A program made the position numbers and the translations under genes. A stretch of 64,000 nt of DNA from a virus. Location: the IMG/VR virus record IMGVR_UViG_3300021437_000002. One strand, given 5' to 3'. Under the pieces are notes generated by a model. That model saw only the letters and a program-made list of their open reading frames with translations, had not been told where the DNA came from and made no database searches. This document shows, in pieces, positions 1 to 11,925 of this stretch (positions are counted from its first letter, which is position 1; every line of letters starts with the position of its first letter).

Positions 1-479
1 AGGACATCATCTTACAGCGGCGCATGATCGTTGCGCGCGCGCGCGTCCAGGGCATCACCGAGCAAGGCATCGTGAAATCCCTGGAGAAGCAAGGGTTCAT
101 CAATCCAAAGACCGGAGTGGCATGGACGCACGTCACGATCCATACCGATATCAAGGCCATCGAGAAAGCCTGGCGCGAGGAGATGCTGAAAGCCACCTCC
201 GAACACAAGGCCCGCATCCTGGCTGAGTTGGCGGAGGTCAAGCGCCGGGGCTGGTCCGAGGGTGATATAGACCTTGTGCTCAAGGCCCTGGCGCAGGAAC
301 GGGCGGTGATCGGAGCGGATGCGCCGACCAAGATCACAGAGACCGATGAGAAGGGGCGTTCAATTTATTATTTTCCTGATGACGTGCCGACGGCAGCAGC
401 CTGGACAGAAAAGTTTGCGCCGATCACAAACAGTGACGATCTGGATAAGTGCGTAAATGGGAACGGCACCGTTCACTAA
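1..479 (+). CDS. terminase small subunit-like DNA-binding protein, 5' end probably outside window
   Basis: Frame is open from nt 3 to the stop at 479 (ORF track 24..479). HTH-like N-terminus (GITEQGIVKSLEKQGF). Overlaps and directly precedes the large terminase gene. Confidence 0.5.
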   Translation, partial: DIILQRRMIVARARVQGITEQGIVKSLEKQGFINPKTGVAWTHVTIHTDIKAIEKAWREEMLKATSEHKARILAELAEVKRRGWSEGDIDLVLKALAQERAVIGADAPTKITETDEKGRSIYYFPDDVPTAAAWTEKFAPITNSDDLDKCVNGNGTVH

Positions 480-1872
480 CGAGCATCCCGTCACTGTGTG
501 GGCACCGAATCCGGGGCCGCAGTGGGCGCTGTTAGCCTGCCCGGTAGAGGATGTTTTCTTTGGCGGACAACGCGGGGGCGGCAAGAGCGTCGGACTTTTG
601 ATGCATTTTGCCAAGCGAGCTGACCGCTATAAAAAGCATGCGCGTGGCGTTTTGATGCGTCGTTCATACCCAGAACTCGAAGAGATTGAGTATCTTGCTT
701 CACTGATCTACCCAGGCATGGGGGCCAGGTGGTTCGCCTCCCGCCACCGCTGGCAATGGCCTAATGGTGCCTCTCTCCGGCTGCGGTATCTGAAGAGAGA
801 CGAGGACGCTCAGCAGTACCAGGGGCAAAGCTTTACCGATCTGCTACTTGACGAGATTACTCAATGGGCGAGCCCGCAACCGCTTGATTATCTCCGGGCC
901 TGTCTGCGATCTGCGGCGGGGGTGCCCTGCGTTCTCCGTGCGAGCGGTAATCCTGGCGGTCCCGGACATAATTGGTGCAAAGCTCGCTATATTGATCCTG
1001 CCCCCCCCTGGCGCGTGCATATTGATAATCAGGAATTGCCAGACGGCACGACGGCTGAGGTGGCGCGTGTCTTCGTCCCATCAGCAATGGAAGACAACCC
1101 GCAACTTATGAAAAATGATCCCAACTATTGGCAGCGGGTCGCTCTTGCGGCCGGTGGGCGTGAGGACCTGCTGAAAGCCTGGCGCTATGGGATCTGGGAT
1201 ATTGTCGCGGGGGGCGCGCTAGACGATCTGTGGAACCCGGCTGTTCATGTTGTTGAGCCATTCCCTATCCCTTCTTCGTGGTTCGTCAATCGGAGCTTTG
1301 ACTGGGGTTCATCCGCGCCGTTCTCGGTGTGCTGGTGGGCGGAGTCTGACGGGACGACGGCGCCGAACGGGCGGGTGTATCCTCGGGGAACTCTCTTTCA
1401 TATTGCCGAGTGGTACGGATGCACGAAACCAAATGAAGGCGTCCGCATGCTTGCCTCTGAAGTTGCCCGCGGCATTGTCAAGATAGAGAAAGACTTGCCG
1501 TATCGCGTGCAGCCGGGTGCCGCTGATGCAAAAATCTTCAGTGCTGAAAACGGGGTCTGCATTGCCGACGATATGGCACGAGTAGGCGTGCCCTGGCAGT
1601 GCGCAGATAATTCTCCCGGAAGCCGGGCAACCGGACTTGAACGCCTGCGACAGTATCTTATGGCGTCGCTTCAGTTTCCTCTGGAATCACCAGGGCTTTT
1701 CGTCTTCTCGACTTGTCGGCATTTTATCCGTACTGTTCCGGTGTTGCCGCGTGATGAGCGAAATCCCGACGATGTCGATACCGGGGCAGAAGATCATATT
1801 TACGATGCGACACGCTACAGACTTATGTCCCCGCGTCGGCAGATCGGCACAGCCCGGATACAGGGAGTGTAA
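457..1872 (+). CDS. terL: terminase large subunit
   Basis: 471 aa. Walker A-like FFGGQRGGGKSVG near the N-terminus and an acidic nuclease-like C-terminal part (DTGAEDHIYDATRY). Sits between the small terminase-like and portal genes. Confidence 0.9.
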   Translation: MGTAPFTNEHPVTVWAPNPGPQWALLACPVEDVFFGGQRGGGKSVGLLMHFAKRADRYKKHARGVLMRRSYPELEEIEYLASLIYPGMGARWFASRHRWQWPNGASLRLRYLKRDEDAQQYQGQSFTDLLLDEITQWASPQPLDYLRACLRSAAGVPCVLRASGNPGGPGHNWCKARYIDPAPPWRVHIDNQELPDGTTAEVARVFVPSAMEDNPQLMKNDPNYWQRVALAAGGREDLLKAWRYGIWDIVAGGALDDLWNPAVHVVEPFPIPSSWFVNRSFDWGSSAPFSVCWWAESDGTTAPNGRVYPRGTLFHIAEWYGCTKPNEGVRMLASEVARGIVKIEKDLPYRVQPGAADAKIFSAENGVCIADDMARVGVPWQCADNSPGSRATGLERLRQYLMASLQFPLESPGLFVFSTCRHFIRTVPVLPRDERNPDDVDTGAEDHIYDATRYRLMSPRRQIGTARIQGV

Positions 1873-1924
1873 TTCATGTTCCTTTTAGTGCCCCTTGCGT
1901 GGGCCTTCGATCACGGAGGCCCCC

Positions 1925-3472
1925 ATGCCAGGCGTCACCTCACAGCACAAGCAGTATATCCAGATGCTCCCGCTCTGGAGCCGCGTCCGCGATTGCGAAG
2001 AAGGAGAGGACACGATCAAGCTCCGAGCGACGTTGTACCTGCCGCGCCTGAGCGGACAAAGCCATGAGGACTACAAGCGCTTTCTCGATCGGGCCGACTA
2101 CTATAATGGCACGGGCCGCACGATTGACGGACTACATGGCGCCATTTTCCGCCAGCCGCCGGTTATCCAGTGGCGCAAGCAACCGACCGGGGCGGAACAG
2201 TTTGACCCCGCGACGGAAGATGCACCGAAGACCTTCTCGGGTTCCTCCCTCGAGCAGACCCAGGAAGAGCGCTGGGAAGAGAATATCACCCTCTCTGGCG
2301 TCCCTCTCCAAACCTTCATTAAAAAGACTCTGCGGGAAATCCTTATCACCGGGCGCTACGGCATTCTGGTCGATATGCCGCAGGATGGCGATCAACAGTG
2401 CTACCTGTGCGGCTACAACGCGGAATCAATCATCAACTGGCGCGAGGTGAAAACGGGCGGGGTGACAAAACTGACGCTGGTCGTCTTGGAAGAGACCCAG
2501 GAAACGATTGACGCAGACGGCTTCGGTGTGACGGAGAGCATCATCTATCGCGTGTTGGATCTGGACGAGTCCGGCTTCTACCGCGTGCGGATTTTTGTCT
2601 ACAACGAAGGCGACAAGGAATGGGTACTGAGCAGTCAGTTTGCACCGACACGCCTCAATCAGCGACTCGACTTTATTCCTTTCCTTTTCGATGGGGTGAC
2701 GGATCTGACGCCAGCGGCAGAGATCCCGCCGCTGCTTGACCTGGCCAATACGAACCTCACGCATTACCGGACTGCGGCGGATTATCAAAATGCCTTACAC
2801 TTTACCTCCTTGCCGCAACCCTGGGTATCGACGACAGACCGTCAACACGTGCTCGCGATCGGCGGCACAACCGCATGGCTGCTCAATCCTGGCGACCAGG
2901 CCGGCTACCTGGAGTTTTCCGGGCATGGTATCGGGGCGATCAAGGATAGCCTCACTAGTGGTGAGAACCAGATGGCACGGCTTGGCGCCGAACTGCTGGA
3001 ACACGCAAAGGAAGGCGTCGAAGCGGCAGAGACGGTCCGCTTGCGGCAGTCAGGCCGGGCCTCGGTGCTGAGCAATATCGCCAACACATCGAGCCTGGCG
3101 TTCACCAAGGCACTGAAGTGGCTGGTCTGGTGGTCGAACTATGACGAAACTGATGTGCAGGTGAAGATCAACGATGAGTTTATCGAGCAGCGGCTCTCGC
3201 CACAGGATTTGATTGCCTTGACAAATTCCTGGATGATGCGGGCGGTGTCGCGTGACACCCTGCTCTATAATATCAAGCGCGGTGGCGTCATGCCGGAAGA
3301 CCGGACCATTGCGGATGAGAAGGCGCTGATTGATGCCGAGACGGTCACGCCAACGAGCCCGGCATTGCCGCTGGATCAGCAGCCGTTGGGCCAGCCGGGG
3401 CAGCCGCCGCCCCGGCCGCTAAGTGTCGGCGTGCGGGGGAATATCTCGGGGGTGGATGCCTTCGGACAATAG
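1925..3472 (+). CDS. portal protein
   Basis: About 515 aa directly after terL. GGAGG lies 7 nt before the ATG at 1925. Size, position and N-terminal KQYIQMLPLWSRVRDCEEGEDTIK...LYLPRL resemble DUF4055-type portals. Confidence 0.8.
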   Translation: MPGVTSQHKQYIQMLPLWSRVRDCEEGEDTIKLRATLYLPRLSGQSHEDYKRFLDRADYYNGTGRTIDGLHGAIFRQPPVIQWRKQPTGAEQFDPATEDAPKTFSGSSLEQTQEERWEENITLSGVPLQTFIKKTLREILITGRYGILVDMPQDGDQQCYLCGYNAESIINWREVKTGGVTKLTLVVLEETQETIDADGFGVTESIIYRVLDLDESGFYRVRIFVYNEGDKEWVLSSQFAPTRLNQRLDFIPFLFDGVTDLTPAAEIPPLLDLANTNLTHYRTAADYQNALHFTSLPQPWVSTTDRQHVLAIGGTTAWLLNPGDQAGYLEFSGHGIGAIKDSLTSGENQMARLGAELLEHAKEGVEAAETVRLRQSGRASVLSNIANTSSLAFTKALKWLVWWSNYDETDVQVKINDEFIEQRLSPQDLIALTNSWMMRAVSRDTLLYNIKRGGVMPEDRTIADEKALIDAETVTPTSPALPLDQQPLGQPGQPPPRPLSVGVRGNISGVDAFGQ

Positions 3473-3663
3473 GATGCACTATAAGCAGGCAGGAAAGAAA
3501 CAGATCGTTGCAATCTCACGCAAGCAACGGAAAAAAGACCTGGGGTATTTTCTCTCCGTGCAGGGTCGTACTGAGAGCACAGGGTATTCGATCATCTTCA
3601 TTCTTGGACCGATCTATCATCGGGAGCACGATTCTGCCATCGGGCAGTAAGAGGAAAATTGCA

Positions 3664-3942
3664 ATGAGCCAAACAAGGGCTGAGATATACTTTCATCGCT
3701 ACTTCATATTTGGGAAGTATGCTAACGGCGTGCATGTTGATGTGGCTGATAGTGAGGGAGACGTAGTGACGTATGTGATAAGGGAAGAGGCAGACCGCCT
3801 CATTTGCGAGAGAAACAAAATTATTGATGCATTTGATAGGGTATTAAATTTTGTCATAGACGAAGGGCTGGGGATGGGAAAAGAAGAGCTGTGGGAAAAT
3901 ATTTCCTCTCGTATGCGAGGCGGAGATGCCAACCACGACTGA
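3664..3942 (+). CDS. hypothetical protein (AT-richer accessory cassette)
   Basis: Internal ATG of ORF 3508..3942, preceded by AAGAGGA. The region is visibly AT-richer than the flanks. Confidence 0.45.
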   Translation: MSQTRAEIYFHRYFIFGKYANGVHVDVADSEGDVVTYVIREEADRLICERNKIIDAFDRVLNFVIDEGLGMGKEELWENISSRMRGGDANHD

Positions 3943-4279
3943 GGCCGAAGTGGAAAAAGTGAAAGTTGGCATCGCTGCCTATGCCCACGAACAGCTCGTG
4001 GTTCTTCGCATACTCAGAAAACATGGGGAGCTGACCGAGAGAGATTTTGACCGTATTTTCTCTGATTTCAAGAGCACGGTGGGAAGCGACGGAATGACAA
4101 GAAGATCCTTCAGAAAACCGAAGATGAGATTTTGTCCTACTACTGGAGATTCTTTCCTTCTTGGCGGATTTCCACAACGCACCCGTGATCAGTGGCTGCA
4201 TCTTACGCAGTTGATGTGTCTCTGTGGCCTCGTGAAAATCAAAACCGAAAATGGACTTGTGGTGTACTCAGCACCATGA
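3926..4279 (+). CDS. hypothetical protein
   Basis: 117-aa ORF that overlaps its neighbours in operon style. Confidence 0.45.
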   Translation: MPTTTEAEVEKVKVGIAAYAHEQLVVLRILRKHGELTERDFDRIFSDFKSTVGSDGMTRRSFRKPKMRFCPTTGDSFLLGGFPQRTRDQWLHLTQLMCLCGLVKIKTENGLVVYSAP

Positions 4280-4371
4280 ATGTCAATTCTCATCTGCTCG
4301 ATAGTACGCTCGCGCGTGCCGTCACGCGTGAACGCGTGACCTCGTGCGCGACAACTCAAATGCCAGTGTGA
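4276..4371 (+). pseudogene. remnant copy of the 5' end of the head morphogenesis gene
   Basis: Encodes MNVNSHLLDSTLARAVTRERVTSCAT..., matching MTVNSDLLDSTLARAVTLER plus the later gtgacctcgtgcgcgac segment of gene 5082. Stops after 31 codons. Confidence 0.55.
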
Positions 4372-4478
4372 GCGTTTTTATGCTGACTCGAGGGAAGCCG
4401 TAGTGGATGCTGGGCAGGGACTTGGGAGCCGGCATGGTCAGCGTGAATGATGCGCTGGGGCAGTAAACGGGGGGACGT

Positions 4479-4850
4479 ATGTCTTCGGAAAGTGATATTG
4501 TTTTGGATGCGAAAGCGGTGTTGACACGCGCCGGTAAAATTCTTACCCAAGGGGCTCTGCCCTCTGACTGGCAAACCCACGGCGCCAATTGTGTCTTTTG
4601 TGCCTGCGCGTTAGCAAAGACACAATTGGATGAGGAGTGTGATACTGGCGTATCGGTTGCACATGCCCTTGCGGATTTTTTTTCTGGACACGTAACAGAA
4701 GAGCCGACAGATGCTCCCCTGACGCAGGCAACTCACGCGCTCATTCTGGCACTGCCCTTGTACAGGGAATTGGGATGTATTGAGATGGCCTCGCTCACCC
4801 AACAGGGTGCGCTCATGGTGATACAGCAAGCCTATGAACTCTGTGAATGA
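4479..4850 (+). CDS. hypothetical protein
   Basis: 123-aa ORF with no recognisable motif. Confidence 0.45.
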   Translation: MSSESDIVLDAKAVLTRAGKILTQGALPSDWQTHGANCVFCACALAKTQLDEECDTGVSVAHALADFFSGHVTEEPTDAPLTQATHALILALPLYRELGCIEMASLTQQGALMVIQQAYELCE

Positions 4851-5085
4851 TGCCCTCCTCACGAGCACCCTCTCCCGCGCGATCACCGAAGGAAGGAATA
4901 ATATGCGAGCAAGATGGTTGCTTGATGGTTCGCTTGTACTAAGCGATTTACCAATAAAATCCCCTGGACGACCGCGAAAGACTGTCCAGATAACAAGAGA
5001 AGAAGCCCGAGATACAACCAAGTGGCATGCAGCTAAGACAAAGGCCCGGAAGGAAAAGCGAGACCTAGAGTTACTACCACAATGA
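4834..5085 (+). CDS. hypothetical protein whose N-terminus duplicates the morphogenesis protein N-terminus
   Basis: MNSVNDALLTSTLSRAIT resembles MTVNSDLLDSTLARAVT. The stop overlaps the ATG of gene 5082 (ATGA). Confidence 0.45.
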   Translation: MNSVNDALLTSTLSRAITEGRNNMRARWLLDGSLVLSDLPIKSPGRPRKTVQITREEARDTTKWHAAKTKARKEKRDLELLPQ

Positions 5086-7313
5086 CCGTCAATTCTGATC
5101 TTCTTGACAGTACCTTAGCGCGCGCGGTCACCCTGGAACGCTTGACCGCCGGCGAGCGGCACGAAGTGCTTCGCATCCTCACGCAGCTTGAGCGTGACCT
5201 CGTGCGCGACCTGGAACGCTCCGGCCTGACGACTTTTCGGCGTGATCGACTCACCGCCTTGCTTTCACAGGCCAGAGAGACCATCCGCCTTGCCTATCGG
5301 GATATCCGCGACAGCCAGCAGGCGAACATGCAGGACCTCGCAGACCTCGAATCCACCTGGACAGTGCGGGCGCTCAATACCGCGATCGACGTTGACGTGG
5401 CCTCCGTCGCGTGGTCTCCGCAGCAGTTGCGCACGCTGGTCAGCACCGTAATGATTGACAACGCCCCGAGCGCCGAGTGGTGGGCGAAACAGGCTGGTGC
5501 CCTGAGTCAGCGATTCTCGGAGATCATCCGTCAGGGTATGCTGCGTGGGGATTCGCTCTCAGACCTGACCCGTGCGGTTCGTGGCACGCGCGAGAACGGA
5601 TTTACGGACGGGATTATGCAGGTGCCGACCTATCAGGCGGAGGCACTCATTCACAGTTCCATTTCGACCGTTGCGCAAGAAACGCGCCTCGCAACCTTCC
5701 GTGCTAACAGCGATGTGGTCAAGTCTGTGATGTGGCTCTCGGTGTTGGATGGGCGGACAACGATCGAGTACTGCATCCCGCGGTCACGCAAGCTCTACAC
5801 GCTCGATGGGCAGCCGATCGGGCATAGTCTGCCGTGGGACGGCGGCCCTGGAAGAATTCACTGGCGCGCCATTTGTAGCGGAACACTGATTACCACCGCC
5901 CGAGGTGACGTGCCGATTGAGCGGGTCAAAGTCGGTGAGCAGGTTTTAACGCACCACGGGCGATTTGCTGCCGTTACTGCGTGCAGATCGCAGAACTTCA
6001 AGGATGGGATCATTCGGATTATCCACACGGAATCCGGTCGGATTCTCAGGGCATCTGATGACCACCCGGTATTGGTGTCTGGTCGTGGCTGGAAATTCAC
6101 TGGGGCAGTGAAAGTCGGAGAATACCTTTTCGGCAATACGGAAAAGTTTCCCGTAGTAACTCGTGGTCAATCCCCTATCGGCGCGGCATCGGAAAATTGT
6201 CCACCCTGCATTGACAAGGGCGAGATCGCGCTGAAGCGAGCGATTCAGCTTGTGGCCCCCAACGTCGATTTCAAAGGCGATCAGGAGGTCTGGTCTCGCG
6301 AAGTCGAGGATAGCGCAATCGATTTGATATTGCGTGATCCACCGACAATCGAAGACCAGGGCCGCTTGCATTATTTGCTCGCGCTGGCTGAGGCGCTGGA
6401 GCAATTGGGGCGCTACGGCTTTCGCAATCTTTTGTCGGACATGCTGAGGGATGGTGCTACCTCTATGCCGTTGGCTCATCCTTTTATAGACCCCATGCCG
6501 TCGTTTAGTCTCGTCAGAGCGCTCAATAACGCCGGGCATGTGCATAGGATTATGGGCGATCATGCGGGCAGAATGGGCAGCCAGGGCGGGGTGAGTTTCT
6601 TTCGTGAGTCCCCAAGACCAATGCTGTTGACCGGCAGGAAATACCCTATTCCCATTAGCGCAGTCAACCAGAGCTTGTTCTCTTCTGGATCTGGTGGGGA
6701 TGTTGTTATACCTCGCGTATCTGGAAAGGGTTCCGTTCGCCAGGTTGTGTTTCCGTTCGATAGCACGGAGAGAATGACCATTTGTGATGTGTTCAGTGAG
6801 AATGAGCATCCGATGGGAAAGGTTTTCTTTGGGCATGATCGTATCGTAGCACTGGAAGTGCAGACATACAATGGCCGCGTGTTCGACCTTGAAGTACAAG
6901 GCGATTGCTCGTATGTGGCCTCTGGCATTGTCGTCTCAAACTGTCGCAGTCAGGCCGTGCCAGTAACCAAGTCATGGCAGGAATTGAGTGGCCGCCCACT
7001 TCAGCAAGCAGACGGCCAGACGCTGGACCGGCTCTTTCAGCAGAACTTGCGAGACCGGGGCTGGAGTGAGGAGCGGATCGCGACGGCAAGAAGGAATCAA
7101 CAAGCTTCCATGAATGGGCAGGTGAGCGCCTCGCTGAGCTATCAAGACTGGTTCAAGACCCAGGGCAAAGATTTTCAACTTGAAGTGTTGGGGCGCGGAA
7201 GATATGATTTGTACTCGCAAGGGAAACTGACGGACTTGACTGACCTGGTAAGCCAGCGCGGCAATCCGCTAACGGTGCGGGAACTGAAACAGCAGTACGG
7301 AGTAGCAGCGTAA
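5082..7313 (+). CDS. head morphogenesis protein (Mu F / SPP1 gp7 type) interrupted by an in-frame intein
   Basis: 743-aa ORF downstream of the portal gene. The exteins total 387 aa. The junction reconstitutes ...IHWRAI|CRSQ, resembling the family HxxCRC motif. Confidence 0.8.
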   Translation: MTVNSDLLDSTLARAVTLERLTAGERHEVLRILTQLERDLVRDLERSGLTTFRRDRLTALLSQARETIRLAYRDIRDSQQANMQDLADLESTWTVRALNTAIDVDVASVAWSPQQLRTLVSTVMIDNAPSAEWWAKQAGALSQRFSEIIRQGMLRGDSLSDLTRAVRGTRENGFTDGIMQVPTYQAEALIHSSISTVAQETRLATFRANSDVVKSVMWLSVLDGRTTIEYCIPRSRKLYTLDGQPIGHSLPWDGGPGRIHWRAICSGTLITTARGDVPIERVKVGEQVLTHHGRFAAVTACRSQNFKDGIIRIIHTESGRILRASDDHPVLVSGRGWKFTGAVKVGEYLFGNTEKFPVVTRGQSPIGAASENCPPCIDKGEIALKRAIQLVAPNVDFKGDQEVWSREVEDSAIDLILRDPPTIEDQGRLHYLLALAEALEQLGRYGFRNLLSDMLRDGATSMPLAHPFIDPMPSFSLVRALNNAGHVHRIMGDHAGRMGSQGGVSFFRESPRPMLLTGRKYPIPISAVNQSLFSSGSGGDVVIPRVSGKGSVRQVVFPFDSTERMTICDVFSENEHPMGKVFFGHDRIVALEVQTYNGRVFDLEVQGDCSYVASGIVVSNCRSQAVPVTKSWQELSGRPLQQADGQTLDRLFQQNLRDRGWSEERIATARRNQQASMNGQVSASLSYQDWFKTQGKDFQLEVLGRGRYDLYSQGKLTDLTDLVSQRGNPLTVRELKQQYGVAA
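5874..6941 (+). mobile_element. intein (356 aa)
   Basis: Starts CSGTLITTARGDVPIERVKVGEQV (block A). Contains ILRASDDHPVLV (block B). Ends VFDLEVQGDCSYVASGIVVSN followed by a +1 Cys at 6942. Confidence 0.85.
5946..6836 (-). CDS. putative free-standing homing endonuclease (HTH + Vsr/DUF559-like nuclease), antisense inside the intein
   Basis: Uninterrupted antisense ORF 5946..6899, with a likely ATG at 6836. Contains GHSLRAIERKHNLANGTLSRYARYNNI and CAILDFARPDLLIAFEIDVGGHKLNRSLQRDLALVNAGWTIFRC. Confidence 0.5.
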   Translation of the reverse strand: MPKENLSHRMLILTEHITNGHSLRAIERKHNLANGTLSRYARYNNIPTRSRREQALVDCANGNRVFPAGQQHWSWGLTKETHPALAAHSARMIAHNPMHMPGVIERSDETKRRHGVYKRMSQRHRGSTIPQHVRQKIAKAVAPQLLQRLSQREQIMQAALVFDCRWITQYQIDCAILDFARPDLLIAFEIDVGGHKLNRSLQRDLALVNAGWTIFRCRADRGLTTSYYGKLFRIAEKVFSDFHCPSEFPATTRHQYRVVIRCPENPTGFRVDNPNDPILEVLRSARSNGSKSPVVR

Positions 7314-9888: not shown

Positions 9889-10689
9889 ATGCCAAAGCTC
9901 AAAGCCAAACTGACGAAAAACGAATATGACGCGCTCCCGGAAGCCAAGCGCGAAGATTACCGCCAAGAGGGCGAGGAGTGGTTTCTCGATGCTGAGGGCA
10001 TCGAGGACGTGAGCGGACTCAAATCGGCCCTGCGCAAACAGCAGGAAGAGAACAAGAAAATCAAAGACGAGCAGCGTGCACGGGCGGACCTCTACAAAGA
10101 CCTCGACCCCGAGAAAGCCCGTGAGGCGATGAAGAAACTCGAAGAGCTGGAAAACAAAAGCCTCATGGATGAGGGGAAATTTGAGGAGTTGTTCGCCAAG
10201 CGCACCGAGGCGATGAAGCGCGACCACGAAAACCAACTCACCGCCGTACAAAAATCACTCGACGGTGAGAAGCAGCGCAACGGCGTACTAGAAAGTCAAC
10301 TCTCTCGCACCCTCATCAATACCGAACTCGTCCGCAATGCCGGAGACCTCAAGATTAAATCCGAGTTTGTCGATCTCCTGCAGTTACGCGCTGAAAAAGA
10401 TTGGACCCTGGACGAGCACGGTAATCCGGTGTGGAAAGTCAACGGCGAGATCAAGTATGGCAAGGACGGGCAGCCGGCCACCATGCAGGAATATCTCGGA
10501 GAGATTGTCAAAAGTCGGCCGACGATGCTGGAGCCCAGCTCCGGCGGCGGTGCGAACGGCAGTGGGCCCCGCCTGAATGGCGGGGCCTTTGTGCTGAGCC
10601 GGGAAGAGGCCAAAGATCCGGCAAAATACCGGGCCGCGAAAGCGCAGGCCGAAAAAGTCGGTGCTTCGTTCCAGATTGCGCAAGAGTAG
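9889..10689 (+). CDS. capsid scaffolding protein
   Basis: 266 aa, very E/K-rich with a coiled-coil-like sequence. Lies immediately upstream of the major capsid gene. Confidence 0.7.
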   Translation: MPKLKAKLTKNEYDALPEAKREDYRQEGEEWFLDAEGIEDVSGLKSALRKQQEENKKIKDEQRARADLYKDLDPEKAREAMKKLEELENKSLMDEGKFEELFAKRTEAMKRDHENQLTAVQKSLDGEKQRNGVLESQLSRTLINTELVRNAGDLKIKSEFVDLLQLRAEKDWTLDEHGNPVWKVNGEIKYGKDGQPATMQEYLGEIVKSRPTMLEPSSGGGANGSGPRLNGGAFVLSREEAKDPAKYRAAKAQAEKVGASFQIAQE

Positions 10690-10788: not shown

Positions 10789-11925
10789 ATGGCCAACACG
10801 CTTGGCGTCTATGATCCAATTTTCTACGCACAGGAAGCGCTGATCTGGCTGGAGAAGGCGCTCGGCATGGCGGGCCGTGTACATCGGGGATATGATGAGA
10901 CCCCACAGGACAAAGGCTCGGTCATTCAGATCCGCCGACCGATGACGTTCACCGCCGCAGCGATGCCTGCCGCCAATACCGACCTTGCCCCGGATACCGT
11001 CTCGATCACGCTCAACCAATGGCAAGGCGTGGTCTTCTCCCTGACCGACAAAGAGCTGGCCCACACCAAAGAGATCATCATCCAAGAACACATCGTGCCA
11101 GCAGCCTATGCTGTGGCAGATGCGATCGACCAGACTCTGGTCCTTCTCTACAAAGATGTTCCCTGGTTTGTGGACAATGACGGCACCACGCCGATTAAGG
11201 ACTTCACCAACACATGGCAAGCCTTGTTCGATCATTTCGTGCCGCAGACTGACCTCCATTTCATGTTGAACGGCGCGCAGACCAACGTCTATCTGCAGCA
11301 GACGGCATTTAGCCAGTGGCAGGGCGCCGGTGATGTGGGCGTGAGCACGCAGCAGCGTGGCACGCTCGGCACCAAGTTTGGCATGGAAACGTTCTCCAAC
11401 CAGAACGTGCGCACCCACGCCACGACCGCGATCACCGCGATTACGCAACTACAATTGAACGCCAATGCTGCGAAGGGCGACACCACTGTTGTCCTCAAGG
11501 ACACTGACGCCGTGCTGGCCGGGACCATTGCCAAGGGTGACACCTTTGTCATTGCCGGCTCGACCCAGCGGTTTGCGGCTACGGCTGACGCCACGGCGGC
11601 CTCCAATCTGATTACCGTGGCCATCACGCCGGCGCTTGATATTGCCCATCTGGCCAACGACAACGTGACGTTGCGGCAAGCCAACGGCAAGGCAGAAAAT
11701 CTGGCTTTTCACCGTGGCGCATTCGCCTTGGCGATGGCACCACTGTCCGATCTCGGCAATCAGCTCGGAGCGAAGATCGCCGCGGTCAGTGATCCAGTGA
11801 CAAATCTCAGTATCCGCTCGCGCATGTGGTACGACGGCACCAATGCGAAAGTCTATGTCGGTTTGGATGCGCTGTGGGGAGTGAAGACCCTCAACTCAAA
11901 CCTCGCCGTGCGGATGAATTCATAA
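10789..11925 (+). CDS. major capsid protein
   Basis: 378 aa directly after the scaffold gene. The N-terminal ANTLGVYDPIFYAQEALIWLEKAL resembles P22-coat/HK97-fold capsid proteins. Confidence 0.8.
   Translation: MANTLGVYDPIFYAQEALIWLEKALGMAGRVHRGYDETPQDKGSVIQIRRPMTFTAAAMPAANTDLAPDTVSITLNQWQGVVFSLTDKELAHTKEIIIQEHIVPAAYAVADAIDQTLVLLYKDVPWFVDNDGTTPIKDFTNTWQALFDHFVPQTDLHFMLNGAQTNVYLQQTAFSQWQGAGDVGVSTQQRGTLGTKFGMETFSNQNVRTHATTAITAITQLQLNANAAKGDTTVVLKDTDAVLAGTIAKGDTFVIAGSTQRFAATADATAASNLITVAITPALDIAHLANDNVTLRQANGKAENLAFHRGAFALAMAPLSDLGNQLGAKIAAVSDPVTNLSIRSRMWYDGTNAKVYVGLDALWGVKTLNSNLAVRMNS

Follow-up and report, generated by a model that had tools for sequence, protein, structure and literature searches.

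The window, the whole 64,000-nucleotide stretch of viral DNA that was analysed, carries a head module with the gene order terminase–portal–MuF–scaffold–capsid. Its forward ORF 5082..7313(+) encodes 743 amino acids and represents a minor capsid gene of the Mu F / SPP1 gp7 type: the N-extein matches PHROG 241 ‘head morphogenesis’ (8.6e-62), and the forward protein gives a weak match to Pfam Phage_Mu_F. The GC content of the locus is ~57%, and its closest relatives are uncultured. The forward frame reads ...GPGRIHWRAI CSGTLITTARGDVPIERV ... ILRASDDHPVLV ... VFDLEVQGDCSYVASGIVVSN CRSQAVPV..., the part between the exteins being an intein. An antisense ORF, 5946..6836(–), lies wholly within the intein, in the –1 frame and in exact codon register with the forward frame. 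The features are as follows.

457..1872, terminase large subunit, neighbour of the Mu F-type gene
1895..3472, portal, neighbour
9889..10689, scaffold, neighbour
10789..11925, major head protein, neighbour
5082..7313, + strand, Mu F / SPP1 gp7-type head-morphogenesis (minor capsid) gene, 743 aa precursor, intein included
5082..5867, + strand, N-extein, aa 1–262, ending ...GPGRIHWR; alignable to intein-less homologs P0006–P0008 (...GPGxxHWx|CRS...)
5868..6941, + strand, intein, most likely 358 aa, from Ala1 (AICSGTLITT...) to ...GIVVSN
5868..6137, + strand, N-terminal splicing (Hint) region; block A 5868..5906, block B RASDDHPVLV 6048..6077
6138..6836, + strand, forward-frame linker, aa 353–585, 233 codons; an open, otherwise unconstrained passenger frame through the endonuclease gene
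6837..6941, + strand, C-terminal splicing region (blocks F and G), RVFDLEV...SYVASGIVVSN; +1 Cys at 6942
6942..7313, + strand, C-extein, CRSQAVPV..., 123 aa and stop; alignable to the C-terminal part of intein-less homologs
5946..6836, – strand, antisense gene for a predicted homing endonuclease, 296 aa and stop (stop codon 5946..5948)
6654..6815, – strand, predicted N-terminal helix-turn-helix (HTH) DNA-binding region, residues ~8–61, ...GHSLRAIERKHNLANGTLSRYARYNNI...
6123..6386, – strand, Vsr-like / DUF559 / EDxHD nuclease core, residues ~151–238, with E153, D178, E189, D191, H195 and D204
5949..6137, – strand, C-terminal tail of the endonuclease, residues 234–296, antisense to the N-terminal splicing domain of the intein

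Boundaries and class of the intein

Pfam and NCBIfam searches with the forward protein returned Intein_splicing (3.7e-6), Hint_2 (2.4e-5) and intein_Cterm (TIGR01443, 1.1e-3). Intein residues 2–92 matched the bacterial intein-like domain 2LWY in PDB (1.6e-5), and the C-terminal splicing region is supported by TIGR01443 and by a weak sequence match to the KlbA intein structure 2JMZ (Mja KlbA, E=0.038). The segment is missing from homologs P0006–P0009, which run H-W-x-C-R-S straight through. Intein-less homologs read ...GPGRIHWQ-CRSTS..., and the segment is therefore an insertion and not native sequence. P0007, a distant homolog without the intein, carries the label Deltaproteobacteria. The same insertion site is occupied in L002–L007, L010–L015, L021, L022 and L023. 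A sequence-only reading had proposed that a Mu F/gp7-type gene is interrupted by a contiguous intein, and both the Intein_splicing/Hint_2 matches and the absence of the segment from intein-less homologs bear this out; the ORFs, blocks, +1 Cys and penultimate Ser that it listed are all present, and the comparison with intein-less Mu F homologs that it suggested fixes the insertion point.

The limits given in that reading need partial revision. The end at 6941, directly before Cys, holds, while the start, placed at 5874 to give 356 aa, is most likely Ala 5868, two residues before Cys 5874, giving 358 aa. We favour this boundary because at 11 loci the intein directly follows H-x-x and has the canonical [GD][TS] of block A as its residues 5–6, and because Cys 5874 is not conserved (V, P, A, L or K is aligned to it in relatives). 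Excision from Ala 5868 would recreate H-W-R-C-R-S, the same as H-W-x-C-R-S of intein-less alleles, and not H-W-R-A-I-C-R as had been supposed.

Judged by its sequence, the intein belongs to class 2. With class 2 inteins of the KlbA type (Tori et al. 2010, PMC2807308) it shares Ala1, lack of the WCT triplet, Cys+1, Ser/Thr at position 7 and His at position 10 of block B, and Asp at position 4 of block F. In contrast to them, the window intein, assigned to its class by sequence, resides in a phage structural gene and holds an antisense endonuclease gene. As of 2009–2010, five archaeal KlbA orthologs and one putative bacterial helicase intein were known in this class (PMC2807308). Since the intein begins with Ala, we infer that splicing probably starts with direct attack of Cys+1, as in the class 2 / KlbA-type mechanism. 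Three residues are non-canonical, namely the initial Ala, the Ser that replaces Thr at position 7 of block B, and the Ser that replaces His at the penultimate position, so efficient splicing cannot be assumed. The same three residues favour a Hint domain that performs C-terminal cleavage only, or that is retained in the mature protein; the insert would then serve for processing or be a mere insertion module that is not spliced out. We consider such a domain quite unlikely: all relatives retain Asn358, Cys+1, the block B His and the block F Asp; canonical Cys1 or Ser1 is found in relatives with an intein at this site; class 2 (KlbA) inteins, which carry Ala1 and the same signature, are known to splice (PMC2807308); and purifying selection acts on the forward frame of the splicing blocks (pN/pS 0.25–0.6).

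In the AlphaFold2 (AF2) model of the forward protein, the N-terminal Hint region forms beta strands with pLDDT of 48–71. The linker has pLDDT of 20–33, which is weak evidence given the shallow 4-sequence alignment; it contains no indels among four homologs of 52–60% identity. Sequence searches against Pfam, NCBIfam and PDB gave no match to an endonuclease or any other domain in the forward linker, in which the earlier reading had recognised no LAGLIDADG or HNH motif.

The antisense reading frame and its predicted product

The antisense ORF had been described as 5946..6836/6899, and the frame is indeed open and uninterrupted over this range. The longer version, 5946..6899(–), starts from TTG and encodes 317 aa; from the ATG at 6836 the product would be 296 aa long. 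The start of homologs corresponds to this ATG, which favours the shorter product, and the in-frame upstream TTG (6899) is unlikely to be used.

With the window protein as a single query, Pfam DUF559 was matched weakly (E=0.007, 16.8 bits, under the gathering threshold of 20.6), and a single-sequence search of PDB gave no match. The AF2 model of the protein has pLDDT of 91.3 and pTM of 0.70, and its best Foldseek match is 3R3P (I-Bth0305I; probability 1.00, TM 0.61 on target). The endonuclease family comprises 230 relatives at E<=1e-3; 51 of 52 members match Pfam DUF559, and a family profile matched 3HRL (4.7e-16), 3R3P (1.4e-6) and PvuRts1I (9e-4) in PDB. Residues D178, E189 and D191 do not vary across 60 sequences. 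The window copy holds these as well as E153, H195 and D204, and E153, D178, D191, H195 and D204 correspond to EDxHD residues E170, D196, N208, H213 and D222 of I-Bth0305I. The N-terminus, previously noted as HTH-like, is modelled as helices 8–18, 23–29, 36–43 and 51–61 with pLDDT ~96; profile matches to HTH proteins are weak (2KPJ, 4.5e-3), and several family members match Pfam HTH families. In the C-terminal tail, YRVVIRC (residues 256–262) and ASDDHPV of block B are encoded exactly opposite each other, as read straight from the sequence, and the model contains strands 258–262 and 265–271 and helix 277–287 (pLDDT 87–96). By its predicted fold, family and catalytic residues, the antisense protein is a Vsr-like endonuclease. 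The Vsr/DUF559-type nuclease proposed from the letters alone thus agrees with the family matches to DUF559, I-Bth0305I and PvuRts1I, and searching both translations placed the nuclease family on the antisense side only.

Among characterised homing endonucleases, the antisense protein is matched best in fold and profile by I-Bth0305I of the EDxHD (Vsr-like) family (Taylor et al. 2011, PMC3239194; 3R3P). Both proteins have an N-terminal HTH-type region followed by a Vsr-like core with the E, D, (N/D), H, D active-site residues, at ~14–15% sequence identity. I-Bth0305I itself is encoded on the sense strand of a recA group I intron, with no protein-coding overlap, whereas the window protein has an extra C-terminal tail of ~60 residues antisense to the block B region.

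Selection on opposite strands

In the register found here, forward codon position 1 is antisense position 3. Across the linker (233 codons, four homologs whose six pairs share ancestry), forward positions 1/2/3 show 0.60/0.29/0.38 differences per site, and amino acid identity is 0.54 for the antisense frame vs 0.33 for the forward frame. In exteins and splicing blocks, position 3 of forward codons is the most variable (0.49–0.66). This is the case for the N-extein (forward pN/pS 0.4–0.5), the C-extein, and aa 263–288, which lie outside the overlap with the antisense ORF. Between the window and L001, 144 differences at position 1 and 75 at position 3 were found in the 233 linker codons (binomial p=3.6e-6; Fisher test vs forward-only regions p=4e-7). 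Nei–Gojobori estimates of pN/pS, which are not independent in overlapping frames, are 0.96–1.11 forward and 0.31–0.41 antisense for the linker, and 0.25–0.49 forward and >1 antisense for the C-terminal Hint region. Forward aa 289–352, which overlap the endonuclease tail, show variability of 0.43/0.21/0.47 at positions 1/2/3 and pN/pS of ~0.55 in both frames; by these measures, the stretch 5949..6137 is constrained in both directions. Codon comparison thus shows selection on opposite strands in different segments, antisense in the linker and forward in splicing blocks and exteins. The codon-position check proposed earlier gave this result, which together with the two open frames supports the proposal that ~0.9 kb would be read both ways with the forward frame kept open.

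Since the frames are exactly in register, antisense stops mirror forward TTA, CTA and TCA. The three represent 1.7% of the codons of the window, and a run of 296 open antisense codons has a chance of ~0.7% there, which is not negligible genome-wide. The ORF could then be a chance ‘shadow’, open only because these codons are rare, with no protein made or selected; it does sit in the frame where shadow ORFs are commonest, and neither a Shine–Dalgarno (SD) sequence nor a promoter was recognised for the window copy. This reading is extremely improbable, and the codon-position test led us to reject it: substitutions concentrate at antisense wobble sites, with pN/pS of 0.3–0.4 antisense and ~1 forward. 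The frame is also kept in phages of 44% GC, with a chance of 1e-6 to 1e-7 (2e-7 to 3e-6 for Vibrio-phage homologs of 44–45% GC); in the Vibrio phages TTA/CTA/TCA account for 5–6% of codons, yet none occurs for ~255–260 codons inside the intein. A shadow would hardly yield a nuclease fold at pLDDT 91 with invariant catalytic residues. We conclude from codon comparison, recurrence at diverged loci and the structure model that the antisense ORF is a real gene.

Recurrence, related systems and proposed mechanism

The nested in-register pair of intein and endonuclease gene recurs at >15 diverged loci: in metagenomes (L001–L005), Vibrio phages MG592631 and MG592630, IMG/VR loci L009–L015, a Desulfuromonadaceae metagenome-assembled genome, Salmonella virus VSe101 (Jerseyvirus) and Gordonia phage Angelicage. 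tblastn with the L005 endonuclease matched 107 phage records, and all 25 of the matches listed fall under head-morphogenesis, minor-capsid, structural or otherwise-named CDS. When L010 is compared with L011, L012, L015 and L009, exteins are 10–13% different (0.23–0.33 at position 3) and inteins 0–5% (up to 7% in the last segment of the intein), with the shift at the intein borders. This sequence pattern shows the signature of recent transfer in a clade that is related to, and not part of, the lineage studied here (endonucleases 39–40% identical).

Translation signals are seen in relatives: in the two Vibrio phages, AGGAG and GGAGG are placed 7 nt before the antisense ATG. No recognisable SD sequence precedes the antisense ATG in the window, and a search of the minus strand found no sigma-70-like promoter, so that expression of the gene in this phage is a prediction only. 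Both absences would suit a vertically inherited relic, an endonuclease once active and here no longer expressed or homing, its open frame reflecting recent ancestry or residual constraint. Several groups of VSR-like inteins look vertically inherited (bioRxiv 10.1101/2025.01.02.630785), and decay does occur, as L008 and L009 are copies with broken frames. Within the window clade of four members, however, 60% of antisense wobble sites differ while the ORF and every catalytic residue are kept, with 54% amino acid identity and no indels. Such divergence points to long-term purifying selection and not to recent ancestry, and we regard a relic as unlikely. The homing role rests on homology, and DUF559/Vsr-like folds also occur in restriction enzymes (PvuRts1I) and repair enzymes; the product might instead be a domesticated nuclease or HTH regulator acting in phage–phage competition, host DNA degradation or gene regulation. 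That would be very surprising for a gene that, in very different phages, has turned up nowhere but in inteins and always at a single conserved site of the same gene family, and with one clade whose intein and endonuclease are far less diverged than the exteins, the signature expected of a homing cassette.

In the fractured genes of Dassa et al. 2009 (PMC2677866), split inteins flank a free-standing Vsr-like or GIY-YIG gene, which in their model invades the intein. Those loci likewise combine a phage gene, an intein and a Vsr-like free-standing-type endonuclease at the endonuclease-insertion point of the intein, but there the intein is split and the host gene divided between two ORFs; in the window a single forward frame runs through, and the endonuclease is encoded on the other strand. 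Vsr-like genes being typical occupants of such loci, the window could hold split-intein halves around an independent gene, with forward continuity incidental. We give this hardly any credence: there is no forward stop in 743 codons, and the same is true of >15 homologous loci; phages of 44–45% GC must avoid codons of 5–6% normal usage; and no internal start or ribosome-binding site was seen for the C-terminal half.

The closest system was described by Gosselin, Arsenault and Gogarten as ‘MuF-like minor capsid, VSR -1 ORF’ inteins in Gordonia phages, with Vsr and 3R3P as best structural/HHpred matches of the endonucleases (bioRxiv 10.1101/2025.01.02.630785). An antisense Vsr-like gene nested in a contiguous intein is therefore a published architecture, for which the sequence-only reading had known no precedent. 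In the exemplar (Angelicage, MH651166), as in the window, a contiguous intein occupies a MuF-like host family (IPR006528) at the same site, right before the conserved C-R-[SC], and the endonuclease uses the in-register antisense frame (‘VSR -1 ORF’). The endonucleases are homologous (hhalign probability 97.2%, E=3.6e-11, 212 columns), with an alignment of 18% identity that runs from the HTH through the nuclease core to the terminal QYRV motif. Class 1 inteins (Cys1: CFVADT...) are found in the Gordonia phages, which are actinobacteriophages, whereas the window intein begins with Ala and its phage is not an actinobacteriophage. We found no codon-position or pN/pS evidence in the preprint. It also lists antisense LAGLIDADG genes in inteins of Synechocystis DnaX, a Chloroflexus SpoVR-like protein and Gordonia phage minor capsid cluster 107, crediting Gorbalenya 1998 and Gogarten et al. 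2002 with such inteins. There too the linker of a contiguous intein encodes a homing endonuclease in antisense, of the LAGLIDADG family and not Vsr-like/EDxHD as here.

With good confidence we interpret the locus as a composite selfish element in a Mu F-type gene, a contiguous intein with a nested antisense homing endonuclease gene of the free-standing type. Its predicted antisense transcript would be translated into the endonuclease, which, in a co-infecting phage whose minor capsid gene lacks the intein, would cut that allele near the conserved H-W-x|C-R-S; recombinational repair would copy intein and endonuclease gene into it as one whole cassette. Translation in the carrier phage would read the forward frame across the endonuclease gene as a passenger linker, and the Hint domain would splice out the full insert to restore ...HWR-CRS.... 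The endonuclease gene would have to avoid TTA, CTA and TCA codons, which are forward stops, and the intein would have to avoid the same codons as antisense stops. The nested pair is thus a clear case of two-way coding, but in an arrangement already described in other phages (2025).

The MuF-type host gene and its intein

The forward gene encodes a MuF-type minor capsid protein; PHROG 241 'head morphogenesis' matches the N-terminal 262 aa of the product (8.6e-62). The order of terminase, portal, MuF, scaffold and major head genes is that of a normal tailed-phage head module:

457..1872, large terminase subunit, on one flank of the MuF gene
1895..3472, portal, on the same flank
4834..5085, plus strand, 83-aa ORF
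5082..7313, plus strand, MuF-type ORF, 743 aa, one uninterrupted frame
5868..6941, plus strand, intein within the MuF-type ORF
5946..6836, minus strand, endonuclease ORF within the intein
9889..10689, scaffold, on the other flank of the MuF gene
10789..11925, major head protein, beside the scaffold gene

The 83-aa ORF ends in ATGA, a 4-nt overlap with the MuF start codon at 5082. Since the MuF gene has no Shine-Dalgarno sequence of its own, this overlap suggests that its translation may be coupled to that of the upstream ORF. A blastn search with the gene found no match among 50,697 phage records.

Four collinear MuF homologs in which the insert is absent read ...GPGRIHWQ-CRSTS... (P0006), ...HPG-CRSTS... 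(P0007), ...HWG-CRSTS... (P0008) and ...HFS-CRC... (P0009). The window reads ...GPGRIHWR, then 358 extra in-frame residues, then CRSQA..., a configuration that points to an intein. A fractured gene with a split intein (Dassa et al. 2009) was ruled out, the MuF gene being a single 743-codon frame that is uninterrupted in homologous loci too. A further MuF homolog (P0011, 622 aa, JGI) carries an intein elsewhere, ...DSKTCIE/CFPAGTLVQ...GIIVKN/CGIADGKEY..., upstream of the HxxCRS site; MuF genes thus have at least two intein insertion points.

In the eleven occupied alleles compared, the intein directly follows H-x-x, and its positions 5-6 are [GD][TS] in all listed junctions, as in canonical block A.

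Junctions between N-extein and intein in occupied alleles (the slash marks the insertion point)
Window: HWR/AICSGT
L002, metagenome locus: HWN/AVVGGT
L003, metagenome locus: HFN/AVPAGS
L004, metagenome locus: HWN/SLAAGS
L005, metagenome locus: HIN/CLPGDS
L006, Vibrio phage (of the pair MG592631 and MG592630): HPN/ACLKGT
L007, the other Vibrio phage of that pair: HWN/ACARGT
L010-L015, IMG/VR contigs: HFC/AVPKGT
L021, Desulfuromonadaceae MAG: HYN/ALLEGT
L022, Salmonella virus VSe101: HPN/CLLGDT
L023, Gordonia phage Angelicage: VIN/CFVADT

Because [GD][TS] always stands at positions 5-6, we place the intein at 5868..6941. Alignment to the intein-less homologs and the ten other occupied alleles makes its first residue Ala (GCC at 5868). 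The sequence-only reading had started the intein at the Cys at 5874, which in this alignment is residue 3; as a nucleophile that Cys was ruled out, being unconserved and out of register with block A. Ala1 is found in the window and in most relatives (L002, L003, L006, L007, L010-L015 and L021), position 1 is Ser in L004, and it is Cys in L005, VSe101 and Angelicage.

The window carries the full set of splicing motifs: A1-I-C-S-G5-T6-L-I8 in block A, RASDDHP in block B with Ser at position 7 and His at position 10, and VFDLEV...SYVASGIVVSN/C in blocks F and G, with the terminal Asn and a Cys+1 nucleophile. Pfam matches to Intein_splicing (3.7e-6) and Hint_2 (2.4e-5) scored 27-30 bits against a gathering cut-off of 35.8, and NCBIfam TIGR01443 (intein_Cterm) matched at 1.1e-3. 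A PDB sequence search with the forward protein found the bacterial intein-like domain 2LWY (1.6e-5) and, weakly, the KlbA intein 2JMZ. No endonuclease domain was detected in the forward frame by Pfam, NCBIfam or PDB sequence search. An AlphaFold2 model of the forward intein gave pLDDT 48-71 for the splicing (Hint) parts and 20-33 for the linker between them (forward aa 353-585); since it was built from a 4-sequence alignment, the low linker score is weak and suggestive only, and should not be set against the scores of the 60-sequence antisense model.

With Ala rather than Cys, Ser or Thr at position 1, the window intein falls outside class 1, the class to which the Ser1 (L004) and Cys1 (L005, L022 and L023) relatives belong. 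Class 3 was excluded by the lack of a WCT triplet: block B position 12, block F position 4 and block G position 5 are Val, Asp and Val in the window. Across the intein family, block F has Asp or Asn at position 4 (in the window clade, Asp), the WCT triplet is missing and the +1 residue is Cys; none of the relatives aligned has a conserved block F Cys. Class 2 inteins, known mainly from archaeal KlbA, are defined by an N-terminus without a nucleophile, no WCT triplet, Thr/Ser7 and His10 in block B, and Cys+1 (PMC2807308). The window bears this KlbA-like signature (Ala1, no WCT, Ser7, His10, Cys+1), a test of sequence signature only, and a class 2 splicing mechanism is a prospect that we rate slightly short of even.

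The antisense endonuclease gene

Within the intein, the minus strand has an open frame at 5946..6899, which encodes 317 aa from a TTG or 296 aa from the ATG at 6836. The two frames are exactly in register, with forward codon position 1 opposite antisense position 3, as computed for eight loci. Such a frame might be a mere shadow of the forward one. TTA, CTA and TCA make up 1.7% of window codons, and the probability of an open in-register antisense run of 296 codons is about 0.7%, a figure that on its own is suggestive, not decisive. In the two Vibrio phages (44-45% GC) these three codons amount to 5-6% of the total and are frequent in the exteins, and they are absent from about 255-260 codons inside the intein; the probability of an open antisense frame arising by chance is there 2e-7 to 3e-6. 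What decides against chance is comparative evidence, and the shadow-ORF hypothesis was rejected.

By protein search the antisense translation has three called relatives (54-60% identity), all on short contigs whose opposite strand holds an open MuF-plus-intein frame. A word-indexed search, whether run with the single sequence or an 8-sequence profile, returned the same three only; of 5.8 billion clusters, just 3 hold a call of the antisense gene. Since gene callers almost never call the nested ORF, searches were done at the DNA level instead. The nested in-register pair was found in two more distant metagenomic MuF genes (L004 and L005), two cultured Vibrio phages whose forward CDS bears no annotation beyond 'hint domain protein', seven IMG/VR contigs (L009-L015), the Desulfuromonadaceae MAG, Salmonella virus VSe101 (a Jerseyvirus) and Gordonia phage Angelicage. 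A tblastn search with the L005 endonuclease matched 107 phage records (Salmonella 65, Pseudomonas 15, Gordonia 8, Escherichia 6, Vibrio 4, and others). All 25 matches listed lie under a CDS named head-morphogenesis, minor-capsid, structural, hypothetical or otherwise. In the Jerseyvirus records listed (e.g. NC_073176.1 4166..6025, MT588083.1 and NC_073183.1) the forward gene is called head morphogenesis protein, minor capsid protein, hypothetical protein or 'NAD+--asparagine ADP-ribosyltransferase'. Nowhere among the tblastn matches listed is an antisense endonuclease annotated, with the possible exception of vB_StyS-sam, where two extra 'hypothetical protein' features lie under the match.

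In the MAG contig (CAYNIW010000022.1; genome 44% GC) the MuF-type region is part of a 1150-aa stop-to-stop open frame, minus strand 2707..6156, with a long N-terminal extension that is portal-like by eye only; it holds an Ala1 intein as in the window and the antisense endonuclease gene. Broken frames were seen in two IMG/VR loci: in L008 (2654587543_000003) frameshifts affect both the C-terminus of the endonuclease and the forward Hint-N region, and in L009 the forward frame stops within the linker. Either element decay or assembly error would account for them.

As for the identity of the antisense protein, an exhaustive profile search of 1.84 billion representatives retrieved 230 relatives at E<=1e-3. 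DUF559 (PF04480) is matched at E<=0.01 by 51 of 52 family members (best 1.2e-16). The window protein alone scores 16.8 bits (E=0.0066; gathering threshold 20.6 bits) and the MAG homolog 53.4 bits. NCBIfam and PHROGs gave zero matches to the antisense protein, and a single-sequence phmmer search of the PDB was empty. The family profile matched the DUF559 protein 3HRL (4.7e-16), the catalytic domain of the homing endonuclease I-Bth0305I (3R3P, 1.4e-6), PvuRts1I (9e-4) and, weakly, Vsr (1CW0, 1.3). For their own antisense VSR-like genes, Gosselin, Arsenault and Gogarten report an HHpred match to 3R3P in a preprint (bioRxiv 10.1101/2025.01.02.630785).

In the AlphaFold2 model from a 60-sequence alignment (pLDDT 91.3, pTM 0.70), a helical HTH region at the N-terminus is followed by a middle part, also helical, and an alpha/beta nuclease core. 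Foldseek against the PDB placed 3R3P first (probability 1.00, target TM 0.61, rmsd 3.3 A over 79 columns, E-value only 0.037), followed by 3HRL, PvuRts1I and Vsr, so that the C-terminal part is predicted to adopt a Vsr-like nuclease fold of the EDxHD family. In the 60-sequence alignment D178, E189 and D191 are invariant and E153, Q169, G211 and R216 are at least 90% conserved, as is H195 in a 52-sequence alignment. By HMM alignment to 3R3P, E153, D178, D191, H195 and D204 would correspond to I-Bth0305I E170, D196, N208, H213 and D222, with a one-residue uncertainty at the His; the window copy has all the EDxHD-equivalent residues. The N-terminus is an HTH/NUMOD-type DNA-binding region: the modelled helices lie within residues 8-61 (pLDDT ~96), HTH profiles match weakly, several relatives match Pfam HTH families and one matches NUMOD3. 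Family profile, model and catalytic residues agree with the sequence-only reading, which had described an HTH followed by a Vsr/DUF559-like nuclease.

Related Vsr-like endonuclease genes in which an N-terminal CxxC zinc-ribbon replaces the HTH were seen in five further IMG/VR contigs: L016 (920..1588), L017 (2815..3483), L018 (2602..3432), L019 (2701..3513) and L020 (2728..3471). The two of this group that were scored against DUF559 gave 41-49 bits, above the cut-off. They sit in canonical Cys1 inteins (CFAAGT...HN/CH) of helicase-like, clamp-loader-like and very large (>2100 aa) proteins, and the in-frame linker is of low complexity, e.g. RKKQGQFRENDQNQSKKKEHH. The sense-strand out-of-frame arrangement in the preprint involves EndoVII-like genes only (bioRxiv 10.1101/2025.01.02.630785), so a Vsr-like counterpart in the sense +1 frame may not have been reported before.

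Selection on the two strands

Codon alignments of the window and three metagenome loci (L001-L003) contain zero indels among the four across the 233-codon linker. Exteins and splicing blocks vary as forward-coding sequence normally does; in the linker this pattern is mirrored.

Divergence by region (forward codon positions 1/2/3, differences per site; amino acid identity, forward/antisense)
N-extein: 0.43/0.35/0.66; 0.48/0.30
Hint-N, not overlapped: 0.31/0.29/0.64; 0.55/0.26
Linker (aa 353-585): 0.60/0.29/0.38; 0.33/0.54
Hint-C: 0.24/0.23/0.49; 0.65/0.42
C-extein: 0.40/0.33/0.58; 0.57/0.31

By the Nei-Gojobori method, pN/pS in the linker is 0.96-1.11 forward and 0.31-0.41 antisense; in Hint-C it is 0.25-0.49 forward and above 1 antisense. 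Between the window and L001, linker position 1 differs at 144 of 233 codons and position 3 at 75 of 233 (p=3.6e-6), and the contrast of the linker with forward-only regions gives p=4e-7. The linker position test was also significant in the independent pair L002/L003 (p=0.002), and the Vibrio pair shows the same reversal of positions 1 and 3. Thus, codon-position conservation, the check proposed in the sequence-only reading, assigns the linker to the antisense strand and the splicing blocks and exteins to the forward strand.

Forward aa 289-352, which overlap the last ~64 antisense codons, behave differently from either: positions 1 and 3 are equally variable (0.43, 0.47), position 2 is low at 0.21, and a pN/pS of about 0.55 for the forward and antisense frames alike suggests that the stretch is constrained both ways. 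Here endonuclease residues 256-262 (YRVVIRC, minus strand) are, as read from the sequence, the exact reverse complement of block B ASDDHPV (6048..6068, plus strand), catalytic His included. Neither Y256 nor V258 varies across the 8-sequence alignment. An equivalent Y[RG][VM]... tail in ~33 of 60 called family members suggests that these too may be nested in inteins; more distant members of ~215 aa are without the tail and may be free-standing.

We tentatively propose, at rather less than even confidence, that the window and its Ala1 relatives (L002, L003, L006, L007, L010-L015 and L021) form a phage-borne family of class 2 (KlbA-type) inteins, and further that about 64 codons are functional both ways: the block B motif and a confidently folded beta-hairpin of the endonuclease (YRVVIRC) are exact mirrors, which would physically lock the endonuclease gene and splicing domain into one co-evolving unit. 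That the intein carries a functional, selected antisense endonuclease gene of the Vsr-like/EDxHD type is, in our judgement, likely.

Expression, mobility and relation to known elements

In the Vibrio phages a strong Shine-Dalgarno sequence (AGGAG/GGAGG; L006 2457..2473, L007 2448..2464) lies 7 nt before the antisense ATG; none was found upstream of this ATG in the window clade. A consensus promoter scan of the minus strand found nothing promoter-like, and the sole minus-strand site from the promoter/terminator scan was one terminator-like hairpin, within chance expectation. In the window a weak TTGTAT-17-TACGAT, below the scan threshold, ends 6 nt short of the antisense ATG; in L001 (upstream of 1829) the place of TACGAT is taken by a perfect TATAAT, at the same 6-nt distance from the start codon. 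These elements hint at a possible leaderless antisense transcript in the window clade.

Among L010-L015 and L009 the exteins are 10-13% diverged (codon position 3: 0.23-0.33) and the intein 0-5% (up to 7% in its final segment), with a sharp step at the intein borders (oriented L010 2917..3984). Dual coding does not explain the low intein divergence, since antisense wobble sites are near-identical too (0.04) in the L010-L015 clade. This is the signature that a recent move of the intein-plus-endonuclease cassette between diverged phages would leave in that clade; the clade is distinct from the window's, and the signature, which is indirect evidence for homing, bears on the family, not directly on the window copy. 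The window copy itself more likely than not still homes.

Inteins with a homing endonuclease on the antisense strand have been reported (Gosselin et al., bioRxiv 10.1101/2025.01.02.630785), among them 'anti-sense VSR-like' genes in full inteins of actinobacteriophage MuF-like minor capsid proteins, tabulated as 'minor capsid, MuF-like, IPR006528, class 1, VSR -1 ORF'; for antisense LAGLIDADG genes in inteins the preprint credits Gorbalenya 1998 and Gogarten 2002. Like these 'VSR -1 ORF' inteins, the window element is a contiguous MuF-gene intein with a Vsr-like antisense ORF in the -1 in-register frame. Its endonuclease is homologous to that of Angelicage, an exemplar of the preprint (hhalign probability 97.2%, E=3.6e-11), and the insertion site is equivalent (...VIN/CFVADT...ARN/CRC...). 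The window element is therefore a diverged member of an already published architecture. The observation made from sequence alone was confirmed, and its interpretation as an intein with an antisense Vsr-like endonuclease stands; its N-terminal boundary moves to Ala 5868, and its claim of novelty falls to the preprint. Three points were not found in the preprint: the strand-by-strand selection evidence, the occurrence outside actinophages and the Ala1 class 2-like splicing domain.

The 'VSR -1 ORF' architecture, so far reported for Gordonia phages, is thus widespread, extending to Vibrio phages, a Salmonella Jerseyvirus and many uncultured phages, and tblastn extends the range of the endonuclease to records of Pseudomonas, Escherichia and other phages. 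The antisense gene escapes annotation pipelines. Vsr-like genes are also known between split-intein halves, and the window element supports the model in which free-standing endonuclease genes invade inteins (Dassa et al. 2009, PMC2677866). It offers a clean natural case of a long antisense gene overlap (891 nt) whose parts can each be ascribed to selection on one strand or both: the linker is selected antisense, the splicing blocks forward, and ~190 nt on both. The in-register layout allows clean knock-outs, because a stop on one strand is a synonymous Leu/Ser change on the other, and each gene can be disabled without altering its partner. If it splices, the Ala1 splicing domain would extend class 2 inteins to phages.
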